DNA of 38,579 nucleotides. Source: a virus (taxonomy: Duplodnaviria > Caudoviricetes). This document shows positions 1 through 38,579 of the stretch, in pieces. Location: the IMG/VR virus record IMGVR_UViG_3300033512_000249, positions 1 to 38,579 of that record, one strand, 5' to 3'. The position numbers and the translations under genes are program-made. Every line of letters starts with the position of its first letter. The first letter of the stretch is position 1. Under the pieces are notes generated by a model, which saw nothing but the letters and a program-made list of their open reading frames with translations, was not told the DNA's origin and ran no database searches.

Positions 1-141
1 ATAAAGAAGACAAACAACTATATGTTCTCGTTTGATACTACGGGAAATGACATACCAGACACGACATTAGTCTACAACGCACTAACCAAATGATGGACTC
101 AGTATACATACCCTAATATATACGACTATGGTGTATATATC
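1..141. repeat. Terminal direct repeat identical to 38439-38579 (circular assembly overlap)
   Basis: Exact 141-nt identity; a gene reads in frame across the junction. Confidence 0.97.
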
Positions 142-648
142 ACAAGTGCATGAGTGTGGAAGTATATAGCAACAAGTGCTGTATCTGATCAGTGTTACGA
201 AATAGAGTCATGATTCGATGATTTCGGCGAGCCTATAGTACATGAGCTGCAGACAAAGGCGTTTGATTTCGGTGAGCCTTGAAGTTATAAGACGTATGAT
301 TATGTAGATATTATCTGAAGGAAAAGCAAATGATCAATGATAGAGTGAAAGGTTATCTGTAATTGAGATATCGTTGGTGGTTGAATGATAACAGATTTCT
401 GTATAACTACGTCTCAGCCTTCCGAATCTCTTTGAAACAGAGTTATATGAGTTGACACTCTGACATGATCGCAAATTACGGAAGATATACTATTCTATGA
501 CTATGTAGCTAGATTCCCCTTATATGTAACTTGACCAGATATATCTATAAATCTTTCAAGCACTTGATGAAGCCGGACATTGGAGAAACTAAGAATATGA
601 GTAAATGGTGAGCCTATAGATGTCTTTTGATACAATAACATTGTTTAG
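1..648 (+). CDS. C-terminal part of tail nozzle / stabilisation protein (begins at 37527, wraps the origin)
   Basis: Frame 1 is open to TAG at 646-648 with TGA=Gly; in frame with ATG 37527; contains TKAFDFGEPGSYK, typical of P22 gp10-like proteins. Confidence 0.8.
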
Positions 649-663
649 ATTGTAAAAGTATAA

Positions 664-2397
664 ATGAGTGACTTAATGATTCTACCTATGCAAGATGATT
701 TCGAGACTACACTAAGCCAGTCTTGGAACTGATCCGCGACAACATTGAATGTTAATACTATCCCAACAGCTACGCTCCCCGCTAGTCAGTACACTTATGT
801 TGTAGTAGACCCTGGGAAAAGCAATATGCAAGTAAGGAAGGTCACGGCTTGGACAGGCACTACAATTACAGTGACTACTGACACAATAGAGAAGTGAGCT
901 GGGTTAAATTATTCAGTGGCATCACATTCCGCTTGAGCCGTAGTAAGATTTTCAAATAACTTCCAATTTTGGAAAGACATACAAACAGCAATAAATAGCA
1001 AAGCAGATGGTACTGATCTTTGAGACTTCATGTTTGCAGCTGATGACATCACAGCGACTGGATCTACAATATCTATAGCACAAACATGAAGCAACTGGAA
1101 GATATGGAAAGACTCAAACGATATGAAGTTTAGAGATGATAATACTCCAGCAACCACATTGACACAACTTGCTTCTTGAGTAGGAGCAGATCAGAAAGTT
1201 GCAGTAAGTGCAACAGATACGACAACATGAGTATTAAATGTTAAGTTGACGGCAGGTGATGGGTTGAAGAAAACCATCATAAACCCAGCAGGCGACGAAT
1301 CACTTGATTTAGATATTGATTTGACAGACACCACAACATTTATAACATTAACAGCATGAGTAGGCGACGCTTGAAAAGTTCCCGTTACAGATGCAACATG
1401 AAAATTAGATCCTAGTTTTTATGATATATGAGATATCGCAAAGTTCTGAGGGACAGGAGCGGATGGAGCGTTAAATATAGCAGCGGGAACAACAACGCTA
1501 ACACTGGCTAACGACACACTAGAGAAGAATTATAGTTCAATAAATATATCATGAACGGCATTGTTAGAAATAACAGGAGTATCATGAGCAGGCGGGGCAA
1601 TCGCAACAATCAAGTGTAAATGAGACTTTACTATGAGTTGAGGAGCGATTAGAATGGATTGACAATGAGCTTCTGCTAATAACGACGGAACAACTACAGT
1701 AATAACAACACGATTTGATGGATGAGCAGCTTGAGCAACAGTAACTGCATGAGGATGAGGGACGGCAAAGACATTTGTCTGATCTACAGCGTGAAAAGTG
1801 ATTAGAGCATCATGTTGAGGCGGAGGATGAAACGGTTGAGCGGCAACAGGATGATCAATTGCATCACCAGGAGCAAGATGAGGAGGTATTTTAATTATAG
1901 AAGTAGGCTGAGCAATAAACTTCACAGCAGGGACTATCTCTGCAAGCTGAGCGGATGCATTAGACCTAGGAGCTAATAACCGGGATCAAAGATGATGAAA
2001 CGGTTGAGGAGGTTGAGGATGAGGATGAACGGTAGTAGTGCTTTACAACACACTAACTTCAACAGCAGGAGCTGTGGAATGTAATTGATGAGATTGAGGA
2101 AACGGAGAATCATACGGTTGAGCCACACTATCAGCACACAAGAACGGATGAGGTTGAGGATGAGCCGGAGCAGGTTATACAGGCGGATGAGCAGGATGAG
2201 CTGGATGAACAGCACCTTGAGTATGAGTGGATGGAGCGAACTGAACAGCTTGAACTGATTGATCATATTGAGCACCAGGGGATGCGTGAGCATGATGAAC
2301 ATGAATACAATCGACATACGATGCGTGAGCAGGTTGATGATGAGGCGGAGGAGGAGAAGGCTTCTACTACGTACAGAAGAACACAGATTTCTTTTAA
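664..2397 (+). CDS. Tail fibre-like virion protein with glycine-rich C-terminal domain (577 aa)
   Basis: ATG..TAA; runs such as GGT TGA GGA GGT TGA GGA TGA GGA TGA give poly-Gly under TGA=Gly; follows the nozzle gene. Confidence 0.8.
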
Positions 2398-2413
2398 ATA
2401 AATACGATACAGA

Positions 2414-4408
2414 ATGGCTTTCAAAAAGAGTACACCTATTATAAAGACTTTTTGATCTCGTGGGGTCGTTTCTGACCCTACGATTACTAACAAGAAACTA
2501 CAAGAGATTACTAGTCCGAGTGCAAATAGTACGATGGGTAAAATAAAACAGCAGAATGTACAGAATGCTGGTATTTTATGAGCAATTAAAAATGTTGCAA
2601 GTTCGTTTGTGCCAAAGCTTACACCTACTACAAGCAGTGTGACACCTCCACAAACAACAGGAGTCCAACAAACATATTGATCACAGGCTATGCAACAGAA
2701 TATTGCAAGTCCTTGATACATAGATAATAGGAACACTGCTGACGTCGCTAAGCTTAAAGGGATGTGAGCGCAAACCATACAAGATGTTTCTGGCTACCTT
2801 CAGCAACAGCAATGATTCTCACAAGCTAGTCCAGAAGACCAGCAGAATACAATAAATAATGTATACAATATGCTTAGGAAAGACCCCACAGTCGCCACTC
2901 CTGAGACTCCTATATTCGATAAAACAGTTGATACGTCAACAGCATACGACCCAAACGACCCAGAGTCTTATCTGATGAAGATGCAAGCAAGGATACAGGC
3001 TAGTTGAAAGAAACCAACAGAAACAGAATACTTCAACATATTGCAAGCCAACAAAGCAATGCAGCTCAAACAGCAAGAATCGCAAGCTAACCCTTACGAG
3101 GACAGAATTAAAGCCCTAGAAGCTGAACAATTAAAACTAAGAGATATCGAGAACACAAACGACCAGAATCAATTGGCTACATATAAACAACAACTAGAAC
3201 AAGAGTACGCACAAAGATCACAACAACTACAACAGCAAGGAGCTGGACAAAAAGAATCCGCTCAGAATGTATATAGCTTCTCATGATTCTGAAGAAGCAC
3301 AAAGGCTGCGGACACAGCTGTGGCTATCCAACAGCAAACAGATCAAGCAATGAATATGCTTAATCTAGAGAAGCAAGCAGCAATAGCTAAAAAAGAAGCA
3401 GAACTTGCTGGAGCGGATTCAGAGGTATTGGCCAATATGAATAAACAAATAGAACAATATAGACAATGAGCTATAGATTACCAAACAGAAAGTCTAAAGT
3501 CTACAGCAGAAGCAAACAAAGCATGATGAGCTTCATATATGGAAAGTATAAATAACCTTATAGCTTCAGCATGAAAGTCTTGAATAGATGTATGAGATGC
3601 CACAAATATCTCTAAATACGCAGAAATGGCTAGAAATAGCGACTGAACGATAAACGAAGCGTTTATTTCTTCACTACCTGAAGATATACAAGCTATCATA
3701 AAGAGTGCGGCCCAGACTAGTATAGCATGAAACAAAGAAGCTCCTAAAATAGAGAATGTAGGGACTGCAAAGAATCCAAGATATATACAACGAGATTGAT
3801 CTAAACGAGTAAACGTAAGTTTAGGTTGAGGAGGTTGATCATATACATATTGAAAGTGAGGAGGCCTATGAGTTTCTTGAACAGCTGTCCCATGAGTTCC
3901 TTGAGTTGCGAAGAAAGATCAGCTGATTGTATCACTTCTTGATAAGTATAAATGATTCCTAAAAAACACAAACGCTTGAGAGGTTATGTTGAGCCCAATG
4001 CTAAGTGCAGAAAAATCAAACTTAGTAGCACAGATAACAGCAGAATACAAGAACGCAAAGAAGTTATGAACATTAGATAATGGTGTGCAAAAATTAGTTG
4101 ATTGATTGCTTTGAGATACACGGAAAACAACGTTTAGCCACGACGGTAAAGTTAAAGCAGTTGACTTACTATTAGAAAGCTTTTGAAGCCAACAACAACA
4201 GCTCACATGAGTACAAACAAACAAAACAGAAAACACAAACGCTTGAACTTTATGAAGTGCTATGGAATCAGCACAAGCATCACCATCGCAAACTTCTAGT
4301 TGAGGATGAATATTAAAATCTATTGTTAACATGTTCGCACCTTCTACAACAAGCACAACTAAAAAAATAGATCCTAAAATTAAATCAGCTTTAGATGAAA
4401 TACGGTAA
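2414..4408 (+). CDS. Putative internal virion / ejection protein (664 aa, Gln/Ala-rich, coiled coil)
   Basis: Continuous ORF in the recoded frame including track ORF 3041-3286; composition and position typical of podovirus ejection proteins. Confidence 0.65.
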
Positions 4409-4409
4409 T

Positions 4410-5972
4410 ATGGCGTGATTGTTTCAAATACCACAAAAGCAAGCTATAGGATGAGGAGTGCAGGGGTTCAAACCACCTGTAGCTTCTCCAGTAATGCCAA
4501 AACCACAACAGAAATCAGTTGTGAGTGAAGCTTTATCTGTTTGAGCACCACAATTGCAACAACAGCCAGCATTACAAGGGACTATAAGCAAAGCTTTGTT
4601 TCCTGTGGAACAGGTCAAGAAAGTTGCAACAGATCAAAAGGTTGAAGCCGAAAGGAATAAAATAACTGAGAATGGATTCTCTCAAAGAGAAATGGATTTT
4701 GTACAGAAAGCTAAAGCAAGTTGAATGTCTAAAGATGATGTCATGATGTACATACAAGACAAAAGAAAAGAAATGATGCCCAAAAAAACATTCTGAGAAA
4801 ACGTCAAAGATGTTTGAGAGGGTATCGCTGACTTTGCTTGATGAATACCAAAGGCAATCGCTTCTAGTTGAGTATTAGACAAAACAATGGAGAAGGTGGC
4901 ATGATCGGATGTTTGATTATTCCTCCCCGCTATGCAATGACAAGGGATCACAACGCAACAAGCTTTACAGTCATTAACAAAGGCATTAGTAGGAGAAGAA
5001 GAGCTTAAGAGATACCAACAAGAGCAATGAGGGAAGTCATTCTCTGAGTTCTCTAAGTGAAGCCAAGTATGAGGAGATCCAGAGAGCCAGCTTGCAAAGG
5101 CGACAAGCAACACTCTAAATGTTCTTGAAGCTGTTTGATGAGTCCCAGCTCTTATAAAGGCTTGATGAAAAGCAGTCGTAAAATGACAAGCAGGAAAGAA
5201 GATGTGAAAGATATTAGATGTGGTAAGAGAAACAGAGAACATAGGAGAGAAAAGAGCCGCACTTAGTGCTTGAAGGATAGCAAAAGAGCCTTGAGCTTTA
5301 AAAAAATGGTGGAGTTGAACTAAAGAAGTCGTGCAACCAAGCCAAAGATCAGTTGATGCGGCTGAACAAATAGCGAAAGACATTCCTAATATATCCAAAC
5401 AACCAGAAGTTCTTTATAAACAAGTGTCAGATAAGGTCTCTGAAATATGAAACTCTTTAGAGTGAGAACTCAAACAGATAAAAGTATGATCTTTGACAAG
5501 TAAAAACTCAGAGTTGCAGAAAAGTCTTTCAAGATTAGCTGATGAAATGTGAGATTTGTCAAAATGAAGCGCTAAAGAGATAAAGAAGCTTGCGGAATCT
5601 ATTAAAAACTCATCAACAGCAGATGATGTATGGAAGAATGCCCAGAAATTAGACGATATGATACCAGAGAGCATAAGAAAGTGAGTAAATCTATCTTGAA
5701 AAGATCAAATTATTTACAATATATGGAGACAAGCTAGAGGGTGAGTAAATGACCACCTTGACGATATAGCGACAATGATTAGAAACGTATCTGTAAAAGA
5801 TAAATTCAAGAAAATGTCTAATTATTATCACGCAATGTCACAAATAAAGAAGAAAATATGAGTACTTACCAAACCTCAGAAATGATTTAAGCAAAAGGTT
5901 AGTGAAGCGGTGAACCTTAAGAACTTAGTAATCGCAGGTGTCACTTGAAAAGTTTTATGAAGTATGGATTAA
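4410..5972 (+). CDS. Putative internal virion / ejection protein (520 aa)
   Basis: Continuous recoded ORF; Ala/Gly/Lys-rich with a hydrophobic Gly-rich C-terminus. Confidence 0.65.
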
Positions 5973-6085: not shown

Positions 6086-7585
6086 ATGACCACTCCACAA
6101 AAATCGCAGATAATAAAAGAGTTATGAATTAGAGAGCTTGAGAAAAGACATGAAGACAAGAGAAATAGTCTTTATGAGTTCATTAAATTCTATTGGTACA
6201 AAGAGAAAAGGGAAAAACTAGAAGAGAGCCGACATCTTGAAGAGATATGTAAAAAGCTGGAGAGTGTTTATATGTGAGACATTAAAAGACTCATAATAAA
6301 TATACCTCCTAGATCTCTAAAGACAGAACTTGTTTCAAAAGCGTTCCCTATACGATGCTTAGGGCATGAAAGTCATCTCAAGTTTATGGAGATATCCTAT
6401 TCAGCTACTCTTGCAGAGAAGAACTCTTGAGGAGCTAGAGATATGTACAATTCGGAGACTTACAAACTTGTATTCCCAAGAAGATCTTTGGTGAAAGAAG
6501 ACCAGAACACCAAGCAGCATCGAGAGACAAAAGACGGTGGTCAATACTATGCGGCATGATCAGACGGTACTATTACATGAGTTTGATGTGATATACTTAT
6601 TATAGATGATCCATTAAAGCCAGACGATGCTAATAGTGATGTCATGAGAGTGAAAGTAAATAATAACTATCATGATACACTGTATAGTAGGCTAAACAGC
6701 AAACAAGATGGTGCTATTGTAATAATAATGCAGAGATTGCACGATGACGATCTTTGTTGACACCTTCTAGATAGTGAGGCTAAGGGGACTTGAGATAAGT
6801 GGGACAAACTAATAATCCCCGCTATTGCAGAAGAGGATGAAACACATAGGAAACAATGAGAAAGCTTCTTTGAGAAGAGATTCCCACTTGTATTCTTAGA
6901 AAAGATGAGAGACGATCCAGAAACAAGAGTTTCCTTTTCTACACAGTACCAACAGAACCCAGTGAATAAGGAATCACAGGAATTCCACGAGGAACGAATA
7001 AGATACTATACAGAACTCCCGAAGAAATGAAGAATATTCACAGCATGTGATCCAGCATTCAGTAAGAAACAAAGTGCGGATTACACAGCAATAATAACAT
7101 GAATGTTCGATTGACTTGATATGTATGTTCTTGAATACTCACACGGTAAGTTCGACCCTACGGAGTTGATAAACAAGCTAATATACCACAAACAGAAACG
7201 GAACCCTGAAAAGATATGAATAGAAGCGTTCCAAGCACAGCAAATGATATGATTCAACTTGAGAATCGAACTAGAAAGGCGTTGAATGTATGCAAATATT
7301 GAAGATATAAAGCAAACAGGCGATAAGGAAACAAAGATAAGAAAACTTATTCCCCTATACCAAAGATGACATATATTCCACAAGGTTGGTATGGCAGCAC
7401 TGGAAAACGAGATGACAAGATTCCCAAGGGGGAAACACGACGACATAATAGATGCTATGCAAATGCTATACTCTATGTATCAAATAACACCAAACACTTG
7501 ATTCCCTAAGGGAATCATAGAAATAGAGTATGATAACTTCTGAAGACCGTTTATGGTTTGAGTGGGTGAAAAGGACTGGCTTTAA
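6086..7585 (+). CDS. terL: Terminase large subunit (499 aa)
   Basis: WHLEEIC..RLIINIPPRSLKT (Walker A), ITGVGCDILIIDDPLK (Walker B), IMQRLHDDDL, YQQNP, DPA, FPRGKHDDIIDA. Confidence 0.97.
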
Positions 7586-7601: not shown

Positions 7602-9488
7602 ATGGTTTCACAAGAACAGCAAGTAGATGCAATCAAATATATCGCTGATACGTTTGATGGTTACAAAAGTCTAATGCAAGACAGAATGGATGCTTACCTT
7701 GATATATACAAAGAGTATACAACTTTCACCATACCAAAGAAAAACAATTGGGATACTACATTCAAAGTTAATAAGATGCACGAGGTGGTAAACAAAACAC
7801 TCCCAAGAATTATGAGTAAGAATCCTAAACGATTGGTGAGCAGTAAGCCTGACATGATAACAACAGAGCTGGACAAAATAGAATCTAAGGAAGAAAAGAT
7901 TAGAAAGATCGAGGAACTAGACTTGCAAAGTAAAATAGTTCAGTCGTATCTTACTTTGGTGTTTGAGAAGTATAATCAAACAGAACCTGCAAGACTACGA
8001 GCGAAGAATATGCTTATATATTGAAGTGCGTTCGCTAAAATAGATTTTGCTTATGAAATAGCTAGAAGCACAACAGAAAGCGTAGACGAGGAATCGGAAT
8101 ATAATGAATCCGGAGAAGAGGTAGGGAAAAGAAAAGTGAAGAATAAGAAAATAGAAGAAAAGGTGTTCGGAGAGTATCCAACTATTGATCCAGTTTCTTG
8201 GGCTGATATATACTACGATCCAAGATACAAGATGTTTAGACAAATGCCTTGATTTATAGAGTTCAAGAAATGAGTAAGGATAGGACAGCTAGAACACAAT
8301 AAAGAAGAGTATATAAACCTAGACAAACTTAGAGACATCGTAAGTATACCAACGACACTGGACAGCAGGCTATACAAAGAGCAGATCTACACAATAAGCT
8401 GAATGCAGCTCCCAGAGGCAAAGACATGAGTAAATAAGAACTCACTAGAACTAAAGATATATTATTGACGATATGATTTAGATTGAGAAGAGAAGCTTTA
8501 TAAAATAACAACTGTAGACGATATACTTGTAATTTGCATGAAAGAGATTACGCAAATTCCATTCGTGCAAATAAGATGTTTCGAAGATACAGAAACAAAC
8601 TTCTGACGATGACTTTGTGAGCCTATCATGGGACTCCAACAGGAATTAAACTTCAAGAAAAACAGTGCAAGTGTATATGTTAACAACGCATTAAATAGGT
8701 CGTGGATTTACTCACCCAACAGCGGTATAAACCCGAAAGATCTAGTAAGCAAGCCGAATGGGATTATACCAACAAGCAAATCAATAGATGAAGTACAAAA
8801 GAATCTATTCGAGCTTCCACTTAGAACATTAACACCAGACTTCTTTAATGAGCAGAACGATTTTGAAAGGCAAATACAAGCAATGACTTTCACTGTCGAT
8901 ACAAGTAACCCCAGAACACAAAACAGTCTTACAAACACAGCAACATGAGCAAGAATTAAATTTTTTGAAAGCAACACAGTGATTGATGAGATCAGAAAGC
9001 ACTTCGAAGATGGGCTTACAACACTTTGATACAAGTTACTAGAGGCTACGTTCGAGAATATGGAAGACAACATTATAATTAAAGAAGAATCCACCTGAAA
9101 GACTCGGGAAGTTAACAAAGAATTGATAAAAGATGCGATTATGAAGTACGAAATAAAAATAGAGACTGGATCAAGCGTCTTGGATAACCCAGAAGACAGG
9201 AGAGACGATGCGATTGCTAAGTTCAACATGGCAGTACAAGCTATCGGGGCATGAGTGCCTGTAGACATGACGGAAGCGTTTAAGAACGTCCTTGAGCAGT
9301 TCGAAGTTAAGGATGTGAATAGGTTTATAAAAGATCCGAAACTAGAACAAATGATGGGAATGTGAGGATGAATGTGACAACCATGAATGCAATGATGAGG
9401 GATGTTACAGCCGCCACAACAGCAACCTTCTACTGCTGAGTGAATAGTTTGAGCAGTCGCACAAGGAGACCTAACTACAGCTAGTTAA
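7602..9488 (+). CDS. Portal protein (628 aa)
   Basis: Follows terL; LIYGSAFAK, TATGA motifs and a Gln/Gly/Met-rich tail as in P22-type portals; joins track ORFs 7602 and 8628. Confidence 0.88.
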
Positions 9489-9862: not shown

Positions 9863-10459
9863 ATGGATTCTATTGAAACAACCCAAGAAGGGACTTCACA
9901 GGCATGAAGCCAAGAACAACCACAGTTTATTGAAATCGACTGAGAACAGATTTCTATTGAAGATGTCAAAAAATGATTTCTTCGCCAAAGTGACTACACC
10001 AAGAAAACACAAGAATTAGCTAAACAAAGGGAAGAAATCGAAAGGATGAGACAATGACAACAAGCACCAGAACAACAAGAAGACGAAAAGGTTGTTGATG
10101 AGTATTTGAAGTCTAAAGGTTACTTGACTAAAAGCGACTTTGAAAAAGAAAAAGAAGCATTAAAGCAAGAATCTTATTTTGACAAGTTCTTTGATGCAAA
10201 CCCAGACCTTTCAAAGCATGAAGAGGCTATCAGAGCAATAGCTAAGGTAGACAATTCAGCACTGGAAGATATAGTTGTGAAATACAACTTCTCTACTTCT
10301 GATAAACTACAAAAGGCAAAGTCTTCAAGATCGTTGGTTTGAGATATCAAAAAGGATGAATCTAACCCTAAGACAATAAAGACAATGACTGCTGCGGAAT
10401 ATGCGAAGTGGAAATCAGAACAGTGACTTTCTAGTAAGAAATGAATGTTCTCAGACTAA
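9863..10459 (+). CDS. Capsid scaffolding protein (198 aa)
   Basis: IDGEQISIEDVKKGFLRQSDYTKKTQELA scaffold motif; acidic; precedes the capsid gene. Confidence 0.88.
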
Positions 10460-10486: not shown

Positions 10487-11698
10487 ATGGCAAATTCATT
10501 ATCAGCATCATTCGAAGAGATTCGAGCAAAAGAAATGCAAGAAGTATTCTACAAAAGAAACATCGCTTACAAAATTGCGGATATTTCTTTCAAGGGGACT
10601 ATGAAACAAGGAGACACTTTGAATAGACCTTATAGATCTACTCTCACAGCACAAAGCTACACACCTGGAACGGCTATCACTATTGATGACCTTACAGATA
10701 CTAACGAACAACTTACAATCGACAAGAAATTCGCAACTGGTTTCTATGTAGACGAATTTGATAGCATTCAATCAGCTTATGACACTGCTATGAAATACGG
10801 TAAAGATGCTGGTGAACTTCTTTCAAACATGATCGACGCATACACACTTGGTGAAGCAGTTAATGCTTACTCTTATGTAGATGCTGGAAACGTTGGTGGA
10901 ACAGCTGGAGAAGGTATTGCTCTTACAACAAGCAATGTTCTTCCTATGCTTTCTGCAGTTAAACAGAAACTCAAGAAACTCAACATTTCTTCAAATGACA
11001 TCTTCGGAGCTATTTCCCCAGAAGTTGAAAACATCATTACTCAATATGTAGAAGCAAGAGATACAGCAATGGGAGACAAAATTGGAGAAAATGGATTTAT
11101 CGGTATGTACTATGGAATTAAATTCTATGTATCAAACCAATTGGCATCTTCTGCAGTATTATCACTTGTAACACAACCAACAGCTAACGACACAATCACA
11201 ATCCAAGGGCAAGTATTCACATTTGTTTCTTCTATCGGAACAACTGCAGGAAATGTATTGATCGGGTCTGATGTTGACACTACAAGAGCTAGCCTCGCTA
11301 CTCTTATCAACGCACCAGCAACTTCAACTTCTACAGGACGTGCACTCACAGGAGCAGCTTTAAGATTGTTCCAAAATCAAGTTACAGCAGCAAATGACAA
11401 CTCAGCAAACACTTTGACAGTTACTGCTAAAGGAGTAGGTGTCCTTGATGTATCTGAAGTTTTGACTGATGGTACTGACACATGGACTGCAACAACACAA
11501 CTTCAAAGAAATCTTTTCGGTATTGTGGGAAATCCTGTACTCGTAGTACAAAGAGAACCTTCAATTGCTGTTAGACCAGTACAAGACAAACTTGGAAACA
11601 ACTATTTGAATGGAGTATTGTTCGGTGTTAAATCATTCATCGACAATTCTAAACAAATGGTAGATGCAAGAGTTAGATGTGATACTTACAACGCATAA
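10487..11698 (+). CDS. Major capsid protein, P22 coat-like (403 aa)
   Basis: EIWAKE (CGA=W), GDTLNRP, LTIDK, GMYYGIKFYVSNQL, LFGVK motifs; position after scaffold. Confidence 0.93.
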   Translation: MANSLSASFEEIRAKEMQEVFYKRNIAYKIADISFKGTMKQGDTLNRPYRSTLTAQSYTPGTAITIDDLTDTNEQLTIDKKFATGFYVDEFDSIQSAYDTAMKYGKDAGELLSNMIDAYTLGEAVNAYSYVDAGNVGGTAGEGIALTTSNVLPMLSAVKQKLKKLNISSNDIFGAISPEVENIITQYVEARDTAMGDKIGENGFIGMYYGIKFYVSNQLASSAVLSLVTQPTANDTITIQGQVFTFVSSIGTTAGNVLIGSDVDTTRASLATLINAPATSTSTGRALTGAALRLFQNQVTAANDNSANTLTVTAKGVGVLDVSEVLTDGTDTWTATTQLQRNLFGIVGNPVLVVQREPSIAVRPVQDKLGNNYLNGVLFGVKSFIDNSKQMVDARVRCDTYNA

Positions 11699-12478: not shown

Positions 12479-13318
12479 ATGGAAAAGGAATTAGTACAGA
12501 TGTATAAAGAATACGACAAGCTATCAACTGCTCTTCCCAACATGAGAAATGAGCATAATTTTCTAATAGAATCTATTGAGAAGAAGAGAAAAGAGCTGGG
12601 GGATGTATCTAGACTAAAGCTAGAAGAGTCGGAATCTATACAAATAAAGAGAATGGAGTTTGATAATTACGTCAATTCTAAGAACTCTGAGATAAATATA
12701 GATAGAAAAAGAGTGGACTCTGACCTAAAGGCAGAACAAGAGAAAATCTATAGATTAATAGAAGAGCTTAAGAAGAAAAGAGAGTCCGCATCTATAGAAA
12801 GGGAGGCTACAAATAAAGAGTCGGTAGAGTTCTCAGCGTATCTCTTAAAAGAAAACAATAGAATCAAAAAAGAACTAGAAGTGTTGGACAAAAAAGAAAA
12901 AGATATGTTATTATTGCAGGATAAACTTGCTTTAGAGGAATCAAAAGTAAAGTCTCTTATAGCAAGCAATAACAGCAGTATTGTCTTAGCTAAAGAAATG
13001 GTAAGTGATGCTATAGCTAAACAGAAAAAGGCGGAGGAGTTATATTCTAAAAGTATAAATGAATCTGAGAAGCTTGTTGCTTTAAGAAGCTACATTGAAA
13101 GCAAAGAAGACGAAATTATAGAAAGATGAAAAGCTATAGATTATAGGATTAAAGATCTAGAATCAAAAGAAAAATGAATAATAAAAAAAGAACTAGAGAT
13201 AAAAGAAAGGGAGACTTCTATTAAAGATAAAGAATACAATTTAGAGTGTAAAGAAGAGGACCTAAAGGCAGAAGAGAAAAGACTTGTTTTACTTTCAAAA
13301 CAATTAAAGAATGGCTAA
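12479..13318 (+). CDS. Long coiled-coil protein (279 aa)
   Basis: E/K-rich heptads continue past the TGA at 13127. Confidence 0.75.
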
Positions 13319-13664
13319 AGAAACCGTGAGTATGGCAATAGCGAACTGAGATACGACTAACCCCATACAAGCAAGCGTAGTAGTAAGCACAGGGGATCCC
13401 ACAAAGAACGCCTTGATTGTTTCTTGACCAACAGGCTGAGGGATCCCGACACTCCCCGCTCTAGATACTTGAAGCTATGCTATCTCTGATCTCGACGAAT
13501 CAGGGACGACTAAGTATTACTGATTTGCTGATTGAGCTTGAGCGTGGTATATCCTAGCTATCACCAGTACAACGGCAAGGTACATAAAGTGAGCATCCGA
13601 CTATACAACAAACTGGACGAACAGAGCTGGGCTTTCTTATGATTATTACTACAATATTTTTTAG
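13311..13664 (+). CDS. Putative virion protein (117 aa)
   Basis: Recoded ORF with YYGF..GAWYI..RY..G..Y.T.W.NRA.L.Y pattern that I recall from phage structural modules. Confidence 0.65.
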
Positions 13665-13679
13665 TTAAGATACTACAAA

Positions 13680-14369
13680 ATGGCAATAAAGTCTGCACAG
13701 TCTGCGTTTAATCCGCTATTGGCATCAAATATCCAGAAAGTAAGCTACTCAAAAGAGCCAGTTGATGCTTTTGTGGATTTGCCAGCTTCTTGAAATACTA
13801 TAGGAGATCAAAGAGTAGTGTTGGCAACAAATATAATGTATGTTTGGGATTGAGCATTACGAAACGAGCTTTGAACGTCATTCACTTGAGCTCTTACAAA
13901 CTATCTATGACTATGGAATGCCACTACTAACTCCCCAACGATAGTATCTTCTACGTGAACTCTATGAGATTGGTATAAGGTAGGGACCGCGGGAACTACG
14001 AGTATCGATGGAATAGCTTCTTGGGAGGTGAATGATTATATATGGTTTGATTGATTAGTACGACAAAAAATAGATAACCAAACTTGAAGTTCCTCGGCGT
14101 TCTTTAATATAGTAAGCAATACAACACTTTCATCTATCCATTTCAACGGTATTGTGCAAACCACTTGAACGCTTACGCTTACTCTACCGACTGCGGTAGG
14201 AGTACAAAACTCAAGAATAACAATACTCAAAAGCGATGACTACAATTATACCGTTACACTCCTAACCACATCAAGCCAAACAGTAAACGGCGAAACCTAC
14301 ACATACATAAACCCACAATATACATCATTTACAGTAGTGTCAGATGGTGCAAACTGGAAAATACTTTAA
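13680..14369 (+). CDS. Tail fibre / appendage protein (229 aa)
   Basis: YVWDGALW, GLWNATTNSPT..GDWYKV..DGIASW..WFDGLVWQKIDN repeat module; C-terminal VSDGANW. Confidence 0.75.
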
Positions 14370-14385
14370 TTCGTAATATATTAAC

Positions 14386-14850
14386 ATGGCTTTTTTACCT
14401 TGATGATATGACAGCAGCTTGGATGTAGGGAAAACGATATCTCAGAACCCCGAATCTAGTTACTACCAAGATGTAACTCCTTTGATTTCTACTGCATACG
14501 AACTTACAGCTACTTTTGCTGATGTAGGCTTTGAGATACCTTGTGCTTGATATAAATATCTTACTTTGCGATTTACAATAGATATAAACACCTCTACTGG
14601 AGTTCATATAAGAATTTTGCATAAACACACAAGTGCAGGAACGGAAGAATATAGAGAAATTTATTTATGAAGTCCAGCAGGAAATCAAACAACTATAAAT
14701 CTTAATGATTATCTTATTGCAACAGATACATACCAGTTATTTAAGATTACTTTAGATGTCACTTGAACCCCTTATATACAAGTCCAAGCTAAAGATGATG
14801 CTGATTGAACGGGTCAAATAGATGCTTTATATTATACACTAACTTACTAA
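14386..14850 (+). CDS. Putative virion beta-sandwich protein (154 aa)
   Basis: Recoded ORF; its TAA overlaps the next ATG. Confidence 0.65.
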
Positions 14851-16532: not shown

Positions 16533-16549
16533 TTTCTAAAATATTAAAA

Positions 16550-18140: not shown

Positions 18141-18179
18141 AAAAAAAGTTTTTTTGAATTTTTAACTATAAACAATAAA

Positions 18180-22816: not shown

Positions 22817-22821
22817 CATTC

Positions 22822-23054: not shown

Positions 23055-23065
23055 TATATGTAGAT

Positions 23066-23296
23066 TTAATTTAGAAAATCTTTTCTATCTATTCACGCTG
23101 TCTTTAACATTTTACTAATTGTAGAGGGTATCACTTCTTTTGCTCAATGATCGACAACGGTAAAATCTAATAAAGTTTTAGGGTTATTCCATATTCTGTG
23201 ACTTCATCAACAATTATACATAAATTTGCATCATAACTCCTTTAGTTTACGCACAATATCATCATATTTCATCGGTTTTACTTTTAGCTGTGTCAT
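23066..23296 (-). CDS. hicA: HicA-family toxin (76 aa)
   Basis: MKYDDIVRKLKELGC..GGSHRIW.NP..TVVDHGAKEV..TISKMLKTAGI. Confidence 0.88.
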
Positions 23297-23311
23297 CGCA
23301 TATAAGGTTAA

Positions 23312-23560
23312 TTATAAACTCTTTATTTTAACCTTACTGTACACAATATATGCAAGCTCGAATATCTTTTTTTTCATATCATCGTATCTTTGTTTTTTAA
23401 CGTGTAATAATCATTTAACAACCTTTTCTGAATTGTCTTGCATTTCTTCGAAACTTTTTCACTCTGCCATAAATCCTTGCAAGTCATCACTTGTTGCAAT
23501 AAAGTATTCTTCTCACTTGTATTTTACTTTTTCTACAGAGATTTTTAACATTATTTTCAT
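23312..23560 (-). CDS. hicB: HicB-like antitoxin (82 aa, no C-terminal DNA-binding domain)
   Basis: YFIATSDDLQGFMAEGKSFEE motif; adjacent to hicA. Confidence 0.85.
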
Positions 23561-25028: not shown

Positions 25029-25784
25029 ATGTATAAAATCTGACTCTACCCAGAACGATGAGAAGCAATAAAAGATTTATCTTTCGAGGAGAAATGAAAG
25101 TTACTTGATTGTTTTTTCTATTACAATGGAACATGAGAAATAAATATCGAGTGAGCGTTGAAGGCTGTATTTAATATTTTCAAAAACAGATTAGACAACG
25201 ACAAAGAAGAATATAATAAAAAATGTAAAAAGAATAAAGATATAGCATTAGATAGGGAAGAAAAGAAGAAGCACGAACGTGCACGAACGTGTACGAACGT
25301 ACACCACGAAGCACCACAGCCAACCAATTCTAATTCTAATACTAATTCTAATAATATAAATAATAATATAATAAATAAAGAAGATATAAATATATTATCT
25401 AAAGATAATACAGAAACTAAAGTTTCTGAATCTAAAGAAATATCTCCTCCCATAGAATTAAAACCAATAACTGTTTCTATAAACAATCTAATAGGAACAA
25501 TAAAACAAAATGCGTCCGCCCTCGGCGTTGCATATTCCTCAGACAAAGATAGGGAGTTCGCTAAACACATACTAACCGCTAAAGCCTACTGAGAGTTCTG
25601 CGAGTCAATAGGAATGTGAAGGGAGGAGTTCGCAATAAGCGTAATGAAAGAAAGCGTAAAGAACTCTTATTGGAAGTGAGCGTGTGCTTGACCAAAGAAG
25701 ATATACCAAGAATACCCAGAGGTTTATAATCTCTATCAAAAGAACATTCACAAGAACACAATACCATTTATCCCTACAATATAA
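25029..25784 (+). CDS. Replication initiator / replisome organiser with DUF6291-like N-terminus (251 aa)
   Basis: LYPEWGEAIKDLSFEEKGKLL..Y..G..F.IFKNRLDNDKEEYNKKC; Asn-rich linker; upstream of dnaB. Confidence 0.8.
25271..25375. repeat. Iteron-like 10-bp tandem repeats (GYACGAACGT x3) plus AT-rich tract: probable replication origin
   Basis: Lies inside the initiator gene, as in lambdoid origins. Confidence 0.6.
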
Positions 25785-25786
25785 AC

Positions 25787-26161
25787 ATGAAAAAGATTAC
25801 AGTGATTGAGCTTTTCGATTGAAAGATATCGACGCAAGCTTCACTAGACGAAATAAGTAACCTTATAGCATCGCAGTCAAGTTTACTAAGAATTTGAGAT
25901 GTGATTATAAACAAAAACCAGATCAAAAAGATCTACACAAAGATTCTCTCGGACATAGAAGAATATATACTAAGCCAGCCAAAGGATATACAAGAGAAAA
26001 TATCACAAAGGGAGATGGACAAGATTGCGAGTGTGTGAAGAGGATTCGATTGTGTAGAAGAAGTAGAGAATTATGTTAATTTAAAAATATTGTGATGAGT
26101 ACAGAAGACAGCATTGGAAGATAATTTCTTTATATCATTACAAAATAAACAATGTGAATAG
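25787..26161 (+). CDS. Hypothetical protein between initiator and helicase (124 aa)
   Basis: Recoded ORF, tightly packed. Confidence 0.7.
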
Positions 26162-27381
26162 AGAATATCGAACAATACAACGACTACTCATTAGAAGTAT
26201 CTGGTTTGTCTATGATAGCAACAGATATAGATACAATGAAAAGACTAAGTGAAGAATGTTTCTTCTACGACATCACAAAGAGAATATTCCGTGCTATGAA
26301 AGAGGCGAGATCTACAGATGTAGCAATTCTGTCCCAAATAACATGAATCAACGATGAAGAAATATATCCTCTTATGAATGTTGTAATATCTTACGGATCG
26401 TTTGACTACATAGTAAATAAACTTAACGATCTAAAAACAGCAAGAATACTGAAAAAAGAACTACGCAACATTTCTAATAACTTATTGGATGGAGATATAT
26501 CAGGAGTAAAAAAGGAGTTACAAACTCTACACGACAGTATATCCCATGAAAAGGAATATAAATCACTATGATCACAGTTAGAATCTTATATGGAAGATAT
26601 GTACAAAGAACATAGATACATAAAAACGTGATATAGAGAGATAGACAAATACTTGTTGCTTTCACAATGAAAACTTGCTACTATAGCATGAAGGCCTTGA
26701 ATGGGGAAAACTACAGTAATGCAAAACATAGCACTTAGGCAAAGCTTCAACCATAATGTTGGATTTGTTTCTATGGAGATGTGAGTAAATGAAATAATAG
26801 ATAGATTCGTTTGTATGATAGGTGATATATCCTCCTATGATGTGGCAGAGAAGCTTAAAAACTCCACAAGAATAATGTCAGTATTGTGAGATCTTATAGA
26901 TAAAAAGTTGTTTCTCGTAGACGATATATACAAAATAGAAGAAATAGACGAGTTTATTGCTAGAAACTTCTTAGATGTTTGCTTCTTAGACCACTTGTCC
27001 TTGATATTACATTGAGAATCAAAGATGCCGACAATACAGAGAATTTCAGAGATAACAAGAATATTGAAAGTTATAGCAAAAAAAAGAAACTGTTTGATAA
27101 TATTATGATCTCAACTATCAAGAGAAACAGAGAAGAGAGTAGATAAAAGGCCGCAGCTGTCAGATCTTAGAGATAGTTGAACAATAGAGCAGGATTCAGA
27201 TGCTGTTATCATGCTTTACAGAGAAGAGTATTACGACAAACAAACAGAAAACAAGAATTGTTTAGATGCTATTATAGCAAAAAACAGGGGAGGGATATCA
27301 AAAGATATCCAATTATGATGTAAGTTCTCCTCGTATCAAGTACTTGATAATAAATACTTTGAAGATATTTTAAATTGATAA
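26152..27381 (+). CDS. dnaB: Replicative DnaB-like helicase (409 aa)
   Basis: AGRPGMGKT, FVSMEM, LDHL, SQLSR, RPQLSDLRDSGTIEQDSD, IIAKNR. Confidence 0.95.
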
Positions 27382-28144: not shown

Positions 28145-28332
28145 ACTACTTCGCATATTTGAAACTCTCAGAGACTAACCAAAACATATTAGACTTTGAG
28201 TTTGAGAATTATAGGGCGGGGAATAATAGAGAAAGATTTACTCCTAACAAAATAAAAGATGTGAGCGATAGACGCAAACAAGATTTACAAACTAGAGCAG
28301 AAAAAGAAAAAGCTCGAAGAGAAAGCCCTTAG
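28093..28332 (+). CDS. Hypothetical protein (79 aa)
   Basis: Recoded ORF overlapping both neighbours. Confidence 0.5.
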
Positions 28333-28780
28333 AAAAATAGAAAAAAGTAAAGTTAAAAAGAAAACACAGAAAGTAAATAAACGCATGAAAAAAGAAAATG
28401 TTGAACTTGCAAAGACGATAGCGAAGATAAGGGATGGATACATTTGCCAGAAATGCTGAAAGACAGAAAACATACATTGAAGTCACGTAATAAATGAAGC
28501 AAGAGACCACAGGCTTTCGTGTGATCCAGAGAATATAAAAGCCTTGTGCTATAACTGCCATCTCAACCGACGGCATAAGAATCCTGTAGAGGCAGGAGAA
28601 CGATTTAAAGAGAAACGACCATGAAGGCGAGAGAATCTAAAGTGCAAACATTTAGACAATAGATTTCTTGGGACAATATCCCCAATTTGGGTAGAAGAGC
28701 AAAACAAACTTCTAAAAGAAACTTTACAATCTATGGAAGAACCATGCCAAAACAAAAGCGAGTCAAAGAAAAAAAACTAG
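28259..28780 (+). CDS. NinG/Rap-like HNH-fold nuclease (173 aa)
   Basis: RDGYICQKCG..HGSHV..DPENIKALCYNCHLNWWHKNP.EA.EWF. Confidence 0.85.
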
Positions 28781-29255: not shown

Positions 29256-29495
29256 ATGAAATTAGACAAATTATCATTTGAGTTATGAGAGATCATCGCA
29301 CAACAACAAACACTATGTTACTCATGAAACAAAGAAGATTGAGTTGATTGTGAAGTTGAATGGGATTTCACAAACATTACAAACGAGCCTATTTCAAAAG
29401 TACTTCCAGTTTCTTATGACGGAGATCTTTGAATTGACAGTGTATGGAGATTTGTAGACAGAAACGAATGTTTAAATTTTAACAATATTATGTAA
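29256..29495 (+). CDS. Hypothetical protein (79 aa)
   Basis: Recoded ORF; TAA overlaps the erf ATG. Confidence 0.65.
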
Positions 29496-30058
29496 TGGAA
29501 AGTCTTTTGAAAATACAGTCGGAGTTGAAAGCTCCAAAATGACAATACAACTCTTTTGGGAAATACAAGTATAGAAGTTGCGAAGATATTATGGAGTCAG
29601 TAAAACCACTATTGCAAAAGTATAATTGCATCATAACCCTATCGGATGAACTTGTAAATATAGGAGAAAGGTATTACATAAAAGCCACTGCTTTGTTCCA
29701 AGATATCGCAAATGATAAAAGATTTGAGGTCACAGGATACGCAAGAGAAGAGGAGACAAAAAAATGAATGGATTGAAGCCAAATAACTTGAGCAAGTTCT
29801 TCGTATGCTAGAAAATACGCTTTGAATGGATTGCTTGCAATTGACGACACAAAAGATAGTGACGGAACAAATACACAGTGAAAAGAAAAAAAAGAAGTAT
29901 TTGACAACGCTAGATTTGAGAAGATGCAAACACGATCAAGAGACCAAACCAAAGAGTCGCTTATGCAATATATCTTAAAGATCAAAAAAGAATATGAGAT
30001 AGAAGAAAGCATAAAAGAAAAATTAGATTTATTTATTAACGATCATCAAAATGGATAA
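29495..30058 (+). CDS. erf: ERF-family single-strand annealing protein (187 aa)
   Basis: IQSELKAPKGQYNSFGKYKYRSCEDI; QITGASSSYARKYALNGL. Confidence 0.93.
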
Positions 30059-30857
30059 TATGGAAATTGTAAAGTTTAACCCAACAATAGCAGAGCTTAA
30101 TTCTCTTGTAGAAAAGTACAAATGACTAAAAATAAATTGAATAGATGACAAAGTTTGATATGAAATTGTAAAAGATGCACAACTAGACTTGAGAGATAAA
30201 AGAGTGATAGTCCAAAAGACGTGAAAAAAGTATAGAGAAGATGCAATCGCATACCAAAAAAGAGTTATAGAAGAAGAAAAAAAACTTGTATCAATTATAG
30301 AAAGTACAGAAGAAGAACTTAGAAATGAACGTTCTAGAATAGATGAAGAAAAAGAAATAGAAAAAAGAAGAAAAATATTGCCAGAAAGAATGGCTGAGTT
30401 AGAAAGAAATTGAATAGACTGTGATAATGAGTTTATAGTCGCTATGGACTCAGACGAATTTAACAGATTTGTTATTAGCAAAAGAGAAGAAAAAATATTA
30501 GAAATGCAAAAGAAAGTAGAAGAGGAGTCAAAAAGAGTAGAACTAGAAAGGCAAAATATGGAAAGAGAAAAGGAACTTGAACAAACACGTAAGGAAGCAG
30601 AAGAAAAAGCAAGAATAGAAACAGAAGCAAGGATGAAAAGAGAACAAGAGGAAAAAGAATTAAGAGAAAAGCAAAGATTGGAAGCAGAAGAAAAAGCAAA
30701 GATTGAGGGAGAGAGAATCGCGAAAGAAAAAATGGAGAAAAATAAGAAATACAAACAACGACTAGAAGATAACAGTTACAATGATGTAGAATACATTATT
30801 TTGGACAAAAATTGAAAGAAAGCAATGTATCGTTTTATTTCTGAACTATCTATATAA
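30051..30857 (+). CDS. Coiled-coil protein, DUF1351-like (268 aa)
   Basis: KYKGLKINGIDDKVGYEIV..R..G K..R pattern and E/K/R-rich tail; recombination module. Confidence 0.7.
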
Positions 30858-31609
30858 TGACTGAAATAATTAAAAAATCTATGTATAATTGAGAGGTCAA
30901 TATAGACTTCTACCCAAACAGCCACCAATACAAAAAAGACGGCAAGAATTTACTTTCCGTATCTACGGTATGCGGTGTTGTGGATAAATCACAAGTATTG
31001 ATCTATCGAGCTACAAACCTAGCTAAATACTATTTGCTATCTCTTCCAGAAAGCCAAAGGACACAAGAAGAAGTAGAGAGAGCTTGCCAGATGCACAAAG
31101 AGAAAAAAGAGACTGCGGCGAATATCTGAACGCTAGCACATGCTCGAGTCGAGACATATATAAAGACTGGAGAAATGAGTTTCCCAGAAGATCAGAAGGT
31201 TGCAAACGCAGTCAATTGATTCTTAGAATGGATAAAACAACACGAAGTGAAATTCGAAAAGTCAGAGTTGTTTGTTTATTCAAGAAATCATGACTACGTT
31301 TGAATAACAGATGCAATTGCGAGTATTGACGGGAAAAGATACCTTGTTGACTTCAAAACATCAAACACAATATATTTGATGGAGTACTGAATGCAAACAT
31401 CCGCATATCTAAAAGCATACGAAGAAGAGACTGGAGATGAACTTGATGGTATTATGATTGTTAAATTTTCAAAAGAAGAAACTGACAAGAATTGACAACC
31501 TATTCCAGTATTTGAAACACAAGAAATTGTAGACATAGAATATTTATTTAATGCTTTTCTCAGTGCTAAGGTGTTGAAAGAAGCTGTAAAGAAATACACA
31601 AAATGGTAG
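30857..31609 (+). CDS. PD-(D/E)xK exonuclease (250 aa)
   Basis: HQY..LSVST..DK..LIYWA; GTLAH; YVGITDAIA..LVDFKTS; QTSAY. Confidence 0.88.
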
Positions 31610-32546: not shown

Positions 32547-32915
32547 ATGAAAAAAATTACTATTGATTGAGAAGTTTATGTTTTGGAGAAAGACATGCCG
32601 AAACAAAACACTTTAGCAAAAAAGAAAAAAGATATGGAATATGTAATAGTGAGAACGTATTCAGCATGAGTATTCGCTTGATACTTAGAAAGTAGAAAGT
32701 GACAAGAAGTGGTATTGAGAAATGCAAGAAGGTTGCGATACCGAGATTGAGCTGCCTCATTAAGCCAACTTTCTACTGAGTGAGTATCCAAACCACAAAA
32801 CTGCAAATTTCCTTGTGAGGTTGACATCGTAGAGTTGCTACAATGTATAGAGGTTTTGAAAGTCACTGAGAAAGCAAAAGCAAGTATCGACTCAGTAAAA
32901 GAACGAAAAATGTAA
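32547..32915 (+). CDS. DUF6948-like protein (122 aa)
   Basis: YVIVRTYSAGVFAGYL..ARRLWYWDGAASLSQL..GV.KPQNCKFP. Confidence 0.88.
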
Positions 32916-36376: not shown

Positions 36377-36784
36377 ATGGCTAGACCATACCCTAAAAAT
36401 CCCAAGGGGGAACAAAAGTCACCTAAAAAAACAAAAGAGACAATAGGAAAGTTATTAGATGGGTTTAAAAGCGATTTTACCATATCAGAAGCATGTAGTT
36501 ACGCATGAATACATGTGAGTACATATCATGAACGGATAGATAAGGACAAACAACTTTCCAAAGAAATAGATAGCGCAAAGGAGTACTGCTTTCTATTGGC
36601 TAAGAACGCTGTGAGAAAATGACTCAATGAAGGTGATAAAGAATACTCACTCAAGCGATTAAAGAACAGACAGAATAAACTCTATAGCGAAAGGAATGCA
36701 GAATCAGAGAACAATATAAACATAACAATCAACGACATAAAGAGCATGAGCGATGAAGATCTTGCAAAATCTATTGATTTATAG
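36377..36784 (+). CDS. terS: Terminase small subunit (135 aa)
   Basis: MARP start; HTH TISEACSYAGIHVSTYHEW; KWLKNR; C-terminal MSDEDL. Confidence 0.8.
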
Positions 36785-36801
36785 AAAAAAACCCTTATAT
36801 G
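36774..36801 (+). promoter_or_regulatory. Possible promoter TTGATT-N16-TATATG for the tail/head operon
   Basis: Same geometry; weaker -10 box. Confidence 0.4.
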
Positions 36802-36853
36802 GGAGTTAACAGAACAATCGGAAGAACTCTGAGTTTATCAATAACCATAATTG

Positions 36854-37498
36854 ATGAGTACACTTACGGAGTTAAAAACAAAACTTAATGACGAATATAT
36901 TAAGATAGATCCGAACAATAAGATACGATCTTCTACAGAAAAGACCTCTTTCATAAACAGAGGTTTTTTGCAAATACAGAATGATTGACAATTTAGATGG
37001 AGAGAGAATCAAGCACTTAATACAATAACAACTGTTTGATGAAATAGAGAATACGCATTGCCTAGTGATTTCATCAGAGTAGACCAAATGACATACAACT
37101 GAAGTATCCTATACAAAATAAGTAAGGAGAGAGTAAGAGTCATGAATAGCACAAACACACAAGCCACTCCTAACAACTACTATATATATTGATCTTATGT
37201 AGGGTTTGATCCGATACCGAACACAACGCTAACAATACTTATGGACTACTTCAAGAGACTTCCAACGATAACAGATACCGTTGATTCGTCGCTTCCAGTA
37301 GCCTTTGATGATGCTATATGTTCTTATGCTGCGTATGTAGCATTGAACTCTATAGAGAAGCAAGGGAAGGCAATGATGATGTTAAATGACTACCAGCAGA
37401 ACCTATCAATGCTTTTGAACTCATATATATACGACGATATGAACATAAGCTTTTGACTGGATAGAGCAACAAATAGCTATAGGGATAATGTAATTTAA
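36854..37498 (+). CDS. Head-tail adaptor protein (214 aa)
   Basis: TLTELK..IWSSTEKTSFIN..EYALPSDF..GFDPIP..Y..LP; directly before the nozzle gene. Confidence 0.8.
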
Positions 37499-37526
37499 TT
37501 TCGATTTTATCTCAAATAAGTAAAGT

Positions 37527-38579
37527 ATGGCAGTAAAGCCCATCACAATAAATAATTTCAAAGGAGGGTTGAACCTAAGTACAACTTCAGATATTTGAGA
37601 CGATCAGTTTTCTATAGCAAAGAATATGTTTTACAACTCAAAGCAACAACTACAAACCAGATATTGAATAACTAATTTCTGAGCTGCTGTTGGTAGCAAC
37701 AATCCAGTGACATCATACCATTTCTTCCAAAGAGACGACACTGGAGCTATACAAGCGTTATGTGTAAGCTGAACAAACATGTACAAACTAGATAATACTG
37801 CACTCACACGATCAAGTATAAAGAGTTGACTCACTGAGTTCGAGACGGCTACAGGTAAAACAACTCGAAGAACAAGACGAGACTTCGCAGTATATAGGAA
37901 CATTGTATACGCTACTAACTGAGTAAATAGTTATGCTTCTTACAACTGAACTACATATACAGAGTATGCGACACAGCCAAAGTTTAGATATCTAAATATG
38001 ACTACCGATAGATTGTTTGGATCATGAGAAGACTTAAACCCAAGTACTGTATACTATACAGCATCCGCCCCAGCTGATGGATCTGATCTAGACAACAACA
38101 AAGTTGTTGTATGAGGTGATGAACTAGGAAGAATCAACTGAATGAACGAACTAGGTAACATCATACTTGTTATTAAGTCAAGCAAGATCTACAGCGTTAA
38201 CGTCACAGCATCTTCCGCTGAGCCTATAGATGCACAAACAGGAGGATTCAGCGATAGAACAATAGCTAATGTTTGAAACTCACTCGTTTATTTAACTGAG
38301 AGATGAATAGATACTCTTAAACCTAGAAGCTGAGTATCTTGAGCAGCGGCACTAGAAAGTGAACAGTTGGACATAAATGTAAGAGAACTAACCAAAAAGA
38401 TCGCAGAGTTAAGCCTTAACGCTAACTGTGCATTATACATAAAGAAGACAAACAACTATATGTTCTCGTTTGATACTACGGGAAATGACATACCAGACAC
38501 GACATTAGTCTACAACGCACTAACCAAATGATGGACTCAGTATACATACCCTAATATATACGACTATGGTGTATATATC
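37527..38579 (+). CDS. Tail nozzle / stabilisation protein, N-terminal part (519 aa in total with 1-648)
   Basis: INNFKGGLN..AKNM..TRYG start typical of podovirus beta-propeller nozzle proteins. Confidence 0.82.
38439..38579. repeat. Terminal repeat identical to 1-141
   Basis: Exact identity. Confidence 0.97.

Follow-up and report, generated by a model that had tools for sequence, protein, structure and literature searches.

The Absconditabacteria (SR1) have a genetic code in which UGA encodes Gly and both CGA and CGG encode Trp (Shulgina and Eddy 2021, PMC8629427), and this code was reproduced in 10.64898/2026.04.02.715157. The reading of CGA and CGG as Trp is a computational prediction on rare codons of uncultured bacteria, for which its authors ask experimental confirmation (PMC8629427). 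Here, we analysed the viral record IMGVR_UViG_3300033512_000249 of IMG/VR (Duplodnaviria; Caudoviricetes), whose complete stretch of 38,579 nt we call the window, and for which a sequence-only reading had proposed the same three reassignments and an Absconditabacterales host. In our judgement it is very probably a complete tailed phage that has TGA at Gly positions and CGA or CGG (CGR) at Trp positions, and that most likely infects Absconditabacterales (SR1) endowed with the decoding tRNAs.

The window shares with the Absconditabacteria code the three reassignments, the dominance of AGA among Arg codons, a low GC content (34%) and the rarity of CGT and CGC, but PMC8629427 dealt with bacterial genomes and the window is a phage. 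Counted over whole genes, the window has 49 CGA, 14 CGG and 56 TGG per 10,000 codons. This frequency of CGA is above the value of under 37 given in PMC8629427, which was counted within Pfam domains and is thus not strictly comparable.

Phages of this lineage that read TGA as Gly have been published (PMC10746230, 10.1101/2024.03.08.584096, PMC12807717). One of them is RSA-ATP1, a 39,071-bp phage of Absconditicoccaceae (10.1101/2024.03.08.584096, also PMC13059738). From its description, it resembles the window phage in size, in TGA=Gly, in having terminase, portal and HK97 capsid genes without an integrase, and in its genes for DnaB, a NinG-like protein, an exonuclease and an endolysin. It differs in carrying four tRNAs, including tRNA-Gly(TCA), whereas the window phage has none, and its annotation used code 25 alone, with no occurrence of CGA, CGG or tryptophan in the main text. 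Liu et al. 2023 (PMC10746230) described phages and prophages with code 25 from Absconditabacteria and Gracilibacteria which, like the window, have dense in-frame TGA throughout their genomes in a host-matched manner. That study compared codes 11 and 25 only, and its main text is without CGA/CGG. It proposes that TGA may be an efficient codon, whereas the capsid gene of the window and the EF-Tu genes analysed below point in the opposite direction. The phages of reassigned Bacilli that read AGG as Met (PMC8629427) also follow a sense-codon change of their host without a tRNA of their own, but they involve a single sense codon, no reassigned stop and another host phylum. We found no published description of CGA/CGG=Trp in a virus among main texts and passages, on which supplements (partly on Zenodo) could bear. 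The host code and the TGA=Gly phages are therefore known, and viral CGA/CGG=Trp is apparently undescribed. That a phage follows the code of its host is expected, and not surprising in kind.

The window has 34.3% GC and the 141 nt at its start are repeated exactly at its end. The gene split by the window ends is a single frame of 519 aa when read through the junction. Because of these two features the window is a circular assembly, i.e., a circularly complete tailed-phage genome of 38,438 unique bp, as the sequence-only reading had stated, with genes for terminase, portal, scaffold, capsid, adaptor and tail proteins, for lysis and for replication all in place. Assemblers commonly use a word length of 141, the length of this overlap. 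The placement in Caudoviricetes agrees with the terminase, portal and major head protein found with protein family profiles. Open reading frames (ORFs) of at least 90 aa cover 28% of the window with table 11 versus 84% with TGA open, and table 11 would truncate 47 of the 53 tested genes to less than 80% of their length. Our set of 54 hand-picked genes covers 88% of the window and uses 23713-24189(+) in place of the ORF at 23747-24001(-), a choice made by inspection. The genes end in TAA (38) or TAG (16), which is a consequence of the gene-calling rule. Since neither an integrase nor a tape-measure protein was matched among the 54 proteins, the phage would be short-tailed and possibly lytic.

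Placement of TGA, CGA and CGG

We judged codon placement from DNA, because protein databases store recoded relatives with TGA as Trp and CGR as Arg. The database entry for the window's own terminase large subunit (TerL) is itself translated in this way. Of its 119 top protein homologs, about 107 have Trp in Gly columns and are thus TGA=Gly phages stored under the wrong code; the 12 others have Trp at five CGR sites of the window in 10, 10, 10, 12 and 12 cases. In DNA, 238 TerL-bearing loci were reduced to 174 at 90% identity (64 near-duplicates dropped). In-frame TGA is present in 51 of these (recoded relatives) and absent from 121, and two loci were left out for having one TGA only. The low-complexity genes at 12479, 30051 and 32938 were excluded from the codon alignments.

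The reading of TGA as Gly is strongly supported. TGA makes up 493 of the 863 Gly codons and is present in 50 of the 54 genes. Translating it as Gly instead of Trp raised the scores of the Pfam profiles DnaB_C (192 vs 171.3 bits) and ERF (140.9 vs 129.9), and of the PHROG profiles for TerL (364.8 vs 315.7), a structural protein (244 vs 162.6) and the exonuclease (116.7 vs 92.5). The table 4 alternative, TGA=Trp, is ruled out by these scores, Gly being above Trp in all five proteins tried. We also used a home-made likelihood test over 20 residues (not Codetta), in which TGA, CGA and CGG of the relatives were left out in the recoded set. Gly obtained +17.8 at TGA against the homologs without TGA (31 sites) and +69.4 against recoded relatives (114 sites). 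The controls of this test were correct for 46 of 47 codons with the former and 56 of 56 with the latter; AGA, AGG and all 56 scored control codons were standard, and too few sites were available to score CGT, CGC and TGC. The motifs quoted in the sequence-only reading are in place in the DNA for DnaB (Walker A, 26686), ERF (29528), DUF6948 (32724), the NinG-like protein (28556), the terminase small subunit (TerS, 36521), the capsid (10514), the fibre (14058) and TerL (CGA at 6230 and 6353, CGG at 7199), and so are the poly-Gly tracts that mix TGA and GGN.

For CGA and CGG, we defined Trp and Arg columns on the relatives alone, i.e., by TGG or by undisputed Arg codons. The window has CGA or CGG in 13 of the 21 Trp columns (11 CGA, 2 CGG) and in none of the 48 Arg columns (hypergeometric p 5e-9), so the placement mainly in Arg columns that would have spoken against Trp was not observed. 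The 121 homologs without TGA have the reverse pattern in the same columns, with CGA/CGG in 1 of 593 Trp and 292 of 1688 Arg cases. TGG and CGA interchange freely within the same columns. At CGA, the likelihood test gave Trp +7.4 and Arg -4.7 against the homologs without TGA (8 sites), and +24.7 and -9.4 against recoded relatives (17 sites), which makes CGA=Trp strongly supported; at CGG, the values were +1.9 and -0.3 (2 sites), and +5.6 and -2.3 (3 sites). The genes of the window contain 56 CGA and 16 CGG, and these 72 codons outnumber TGG (64). Trp content is 0.56% when TGG alone is counted and 1.19% with CGR added. The genes and other features concerned are, along the window:

1..141, no strand: terminal overlap, identical to 38439-38579
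1..648, + strand: 3' part of a virion structural gene (gene start 37527), with CGG at 574 in a TGG column
664..2397, + strand: structural protein rich in Gly, with 61 TGA and with TGA and GGN intermixed in its poly-Gly tracts
2414..5972, + strand: two large genes upstream of terL, no family match, homologs in relatives
6086..7585, + strand: TerL (phrog_38), 19 TGA, CGA at 6230, 6353, 6521 and 6995, CGG at 7199
7602..9488, + strand: SU10-type portal protein, with CGA at 7830 and 7998 and CGG at 9105 in TGG columns
9863..10459, + strand: head scaffolding protein (phrog_3927)
10487..11698, + strand: major capsid protein, no TGA among 32 Gly codons, no ATA among 26 Ile codons, its single CGA (10523) in a Trp column
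13311..20030, + strand: tail/fibre region, including two LamG-domain proteins, at 16911-18140 (CGG at 17700 and 17886) and 18180-20030
20853..21218, + strand: endolysin of peptidase type (phrog_465)
23066..23560, - strand: HicA-like toxin gene (PF07927) and a short upstream partner, likely a HicB-like antitoxin (weak DUF1902)
25029..27381, + strand: replication module with a DUF6291 initiator-like gene, a small gene and a DnaB-like helicase (two TGA in its Walker A motif, 26686)
28259..28780, + strand: HNH (NinG-like) nuclease, 4 CGA and 1 CGG
29495..31609, + strand: recombination module with an ERF annealing protein, a coiled-coil protein and a PD-(D/E)XK exonuclease, from family profiles
32547..32915, + strand: DUF6948 protein, ARRL[CGA]Y[CGA]DG, 99.5 bits with Arg vs 113.2 with Trp
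36377..36784, + strand: TerS, matched by PHROGs solely with CGA/CGG as Trp
36851..38579, + strand: SU10-type adaptor, then the 5' part of the structural gene that crosses the junction, from family profiles and the junction reading

A comparison of profile hidden Markov models had been suggested as a check on the recoding. With CGR read as Trp, 7 of 12 proteins gained 4.7-27 bits against their best PHROG family, and 6 of 12 scored higher with Pfam. Examples are TerL with phrog_38 (364.8 to 387.6 bits), the major capsid protein (90.6 to 101.2) and LamG (37.2 to 45.1). TerS was found by PHROGs once CGA/CGG were translated as Trp, and not otherwise.

The evidence for CGG consists of the LamG gain and of four aligned sites. 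CGG is in TGG columns at TerL codon 372, portal codon 502, codon 496 of the junction gene (where relatives have TGG 11 times, CGA 4 and CGG 2) and codon 105 of the NinG-like gene, where two DNA relatives show TGG TGG opposite CGA CGG of the window. The claim for CGG thus stands on fewer sites than the one for CGA. That CGA encodes Trp and CGG still encodes Arg, or is ambiguous, would fit the small number of CGG sites, the unchanged score of phrog_1645, and the homologs at TerS codon 53, which have R, R, R, H and Y under database translation. We find this improbable given the four TGG columns and the 48 Arg columns without CGG. Furthermore, a tRNA(UCG) would read CGG by wobble (PMC8629427), and the tRNA(CCG) of a bacterial genome with relatives of this phage (G001, see below) bears Trp identity elements.

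Several observations weigh against the recoding or limit its certainty. All the support for the code comes from alignments, the relatives are phylogenetically non-independent, so that the p values overstate certainty, and the homologs sufficed for scoring 20 of the 72 CGR sites. The CGG assignment rests on the few sites given above, out of 16 CGG in the window. With Trp, the best match scores lower in 4 of 12 PHROG and 3 of 12 Pfam comparisons. The portal loses from 70.1 to 66.0 and from 57.1 to 54.3 bits, HNH, endolysin and SLT each lose less than 1 bit, and weak matches to phrog_3287 and VanY vanish. One relative each has AGA or AGG opposite CGA at codon 114 of the 37527 gene and codon 465 of the 2414 gene. 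At TerL CGG 372, the distant homologs without TGA have F (30), H (13), Y (10) and R (10), not W, and two of the 12 TerL homologs without W in Gly columns carry R at three CGR sites. TerS CGG 53, a site given as a Trp column in the sequence-only reading, is present in the DNA, but its five protein homologs have the residues listed above and the one DNA relative has Tyr. Lastly, the contig with the closest TerL relative in G001 may be co-binned and not joined to host genes.

Plain table 25, in which CGA and CGG are Arg and fall in Trp-like contexts by chance, could account for the small losses in distant profiles and for the many database homologs with R in CGR columns. Yet these R stem from the translation of recoded relatives under table 4. 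In DNA, CGA/CGG alternate with TGG and not with AGA, and chance contexts are contradicted by the column test and by the likelihood test. We give this alternative almost no probability.

The reassignments extend to the relatives of the window phage. Among the 51 recoded ones, CGR occurs in Trp columns at least twice in 30 and once in five, 14 have no CGR at scored columns, and two have CGR at Arg columns. The window's TerL subclade (support 0.993) contains 14 relatives, all with CGR in Trp columns, including the locus L007 of G001. The wider TerL lineage also contains TGA-only and standard-code phages, and its tree, which is unrooted, suggests that the lineage moved between genetic codes. Four loci (L111, L112, L119, L004) without TGA and with CGA at Arg/Lys positions are nested among TGA-recoded phages. 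A further small group with CGR=Trp (L128, L138, and weakly L135 and L146) is separate from the window's clade. L176, called recoded on two TGA, groups with the sequences without TGA and is probably standard-code. No close phage was found in GenBank, the best TerL among 50,697 phage records having 34% identity.

Host of the phage

A single-sequence TerL scan of species genomes was empty, and an alignment-based scan gave relatives. The closest TerL (L007, 59% identity) is in the bacterial genome G001. In the IleRS/ValRS/LeuS-like genes of this genome aligned with those of E. coli, CGA is opposite W in 11 of 18 cases and never opposite R, CGG is opposite W in 3 of 3, and TGA is opposite G in 38 of 71. 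G001 has tRNAs with anticodons TCA, TCG and CCG. Judged by eye, the tRNA(TCA) has G1:C72, C2:G71, G3:C70 and U73, and both tRNA(TCG) and tRNA(CCG) have A1:U72, G73 and no A20, which are the Trp criteria of PMC8629427. Two further genomes of the same order (G058 and G099) have the same code, and G112 hardly uses CGR.

Another contig of G001 (C79) encodes obgE and a tRNA-Lys, directly followed by an early-gene block (locus L341, 3602-7371) with DUF6291, a homolog of gene 25787 (42%), ERF (72%) and HNH. The stretch read contains no integrase. This block is likely a remnant prophage of this phage group, and since it is on one contig with obgE/tRNA-Lys, the group would have entered such chromosomes. 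G001 thus combines resident relatives with the matching code and tRNA set. Its order is presumably Absconditabacterales, given the code and given that G002 is in the class sample (composition taken from PMC13695967) but outside the order's matches.

The same code might instead belong to a host of BD1-5/Gracilibacteria type. A reading of CGG as Trp is predicted for some Gracilibacteria (PMC8629427, section 11), and G002, which is titled Gracilibacteria, carries a TerL relative at 47%. However, CGA=Trp is given in PMC8629427 for Absconditabacteria only, and CGA is the main reassigned codon of the window (56 vs 16). Moreover, G002 has no CGA/CGG in its aligned synthetase codons, and its phage locus has none in Trp columns and is outside the window's clade. 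Such a host seems to us very improbable.

The sequence-only reading had proposed to match spacers of clustered regularly interspaced short palindromic repeats (CRISPR) to the host. Two DNA searches of 401 genomes of G001's class, a weak search with two candidates scored per genome, gave no convincing match and hence no spacer link. They yielded gene-level homology (TerL, portal, DnaB, ERF and Gly-Tyr repeats) and short matches at chance level, whose arrays were unchecked. The proposed Absconditabacterales host is therefore backed by the code, the tRNAs and the relatives in G001, and not by a spacer match, and its name is deduced.

Two microbial-mat metagenomes from two studies (runs X1 and X2) gave short contigs with 0-1 differences across the genome, at a depth of 2-6, and one of the two may be where the window came from. 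In a related TerL piece of the mat runs, CGG is replaced by CGA at 7201 and TGA by GGA at 7217, and neither change would alter the protein if the proposed code applies. No RNA dataset was among the sequencing runs matching the phage.

Use of the code across genes

Of the Gly codons, TGA makes up 59% in 25 genes for structure, packaging and lysis and 51% in 23 genes on the replication side, and CGR accounts for 44% and 72% of Trp codons, respectively. ARAGORN found no tRNA in the whole window and Rfam none at E<=1, confirming the lack of a canonical tRNA. A relaxed ARAGORN run made 18 low-score calls, none with a TCA, TCG or CCG anticodon, which we treated as noise. No synthetase or release factor was matched among the 54 phage proteins.

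A phage that imposes its code on a standard-code host as a late-gene switch would be in line with phages of this kind described in the discussion of PMC10746230, and with the four phages without TGA nested in the same TerL lineage. Such a switch is extremely unlikely here, as neither a concentration of the code in late genes nor a phage suppressor tRNA was found, the phage has no matched enzyme to support it, and the helicase, ERF and exonuclease require TGA=Gly. In addition, the gene that lacks TGA is the capsid gene, which is the reverse of a late switch. The use of the code in replication and structural genes, without a phage tRNA and with a bacterial genome of the same code, supports host-matching. 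The claim that early and late genes use the code alike holds by gene class and fails for the major capsid gene.

Besides lacking TGA and ATA, the capsid gene is biased to C-ending codons. In the recoded relatives, the TGA share is lower in the capsid than in TerL and portal in 32 of 32 cases (pooled, 6% vs about 50%), with 59 TGA vs 854 GGN in the pooled capsid genes. Their CGR share of Trp codons is 7/71 in the capsid vs 157/465 in TerL and portal. In all five host-class genomes, TGA makes up less of the Gly codons of EF-Tu than of class I synthetases (0.10/0.59, 0/0.22, 0/0.05, 0.29/0.61 and 0.47/0.59); the EF-Tu of G099 has no TGA and 38 GGN. Capsid codon use looks like translational selection against reassigned codons. 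The simplest reading would be that UGA-Gly is made common by AT-biased mutation and is disfavoured where translation is heaviest. We found no earlier work on TGA depletion in highly expressed genes, judging by titles and abstract openings.

If the phage does infect such hosts, these would provide tRNA-Gly(UCA) and the Trp-charged tRNA(UCG) and tRNA(CCG), and UGA would not terminate there. The codons would have been acquired through long residence in such hosts and not via a late-gene switch. UGA-Gly and CGR-Trp might be minor, less efficient codons, purged together with ATA from the most highly expressed gene, that of the capsid.

Other features and significance of the phage

The two large genes upstream of terL could possibly encode ejection proteins, given their position. 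The LamG domain had no match among solved structures. A gene of 72 aa made of Gly-Tyr-Gly-Asp/Ser repeats (32938-33156), 3' of DUF6948, has GGC at all 31 Gly codons and no TGA. Repeats resembling it match several host-class genomes.

Downstream of hicAB, on the opposite strand, the intergenic stretch 22815-22950 (+) is structured (z -4.4, 0/200 shuffles); its hairpins are capped by GCAA/GUAA and its end resembles a terminator. By eye, a TTGCAA..TATAAG promoter-like pair is just 5' of it, which the promoter scan did not report. This stretch is a candidate small RNA; its best Rfam match is far under the threshold, and a pattern search gave one unrelated repeat and no relative. A second long hairpin (22950-23060, z -5.4) directly follows the stop of the hicA-like gene. 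A tRNA-like cloverleaf at 24568-24632 (+) has a TGAGAAT T-loop-like arm, is called neither by ARAGORN nor by Rfam, and had no relatives found. We rejected it as a decoder (z -0.5, a 6-nt anticodon-like loop and two unrelated pattern matches).

There is perhaps an even chance that the window is a complete representative of a large clade of Absconditabacterales phages, so far undescribed, whose main Trp codons, within a three-codon code, are now CGA/CGG and no longer TGG. On the same footing, the terminase lineage would have crossed code barriers more than once, because TGA-only and standard-code phages are in the same lineage, and capsid genes would show that UGA-Gly is disfavoured even where it is the commonest Gly codon genome-wide. 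Public sets translate such phages doubly wrong, taking TGA for Trp and CGA/CGG for Arg. The placement of CGA also tells phages that likely infect Absconditabacterales apart from the remaining TGA=Gly phages, with no need for spacers. Fast-evolving phage genes provide independent support for CGA/CGG=Trp and an abundant target for proteomics. If the assignment is true, peptides of the capsid would be its first direct proof.

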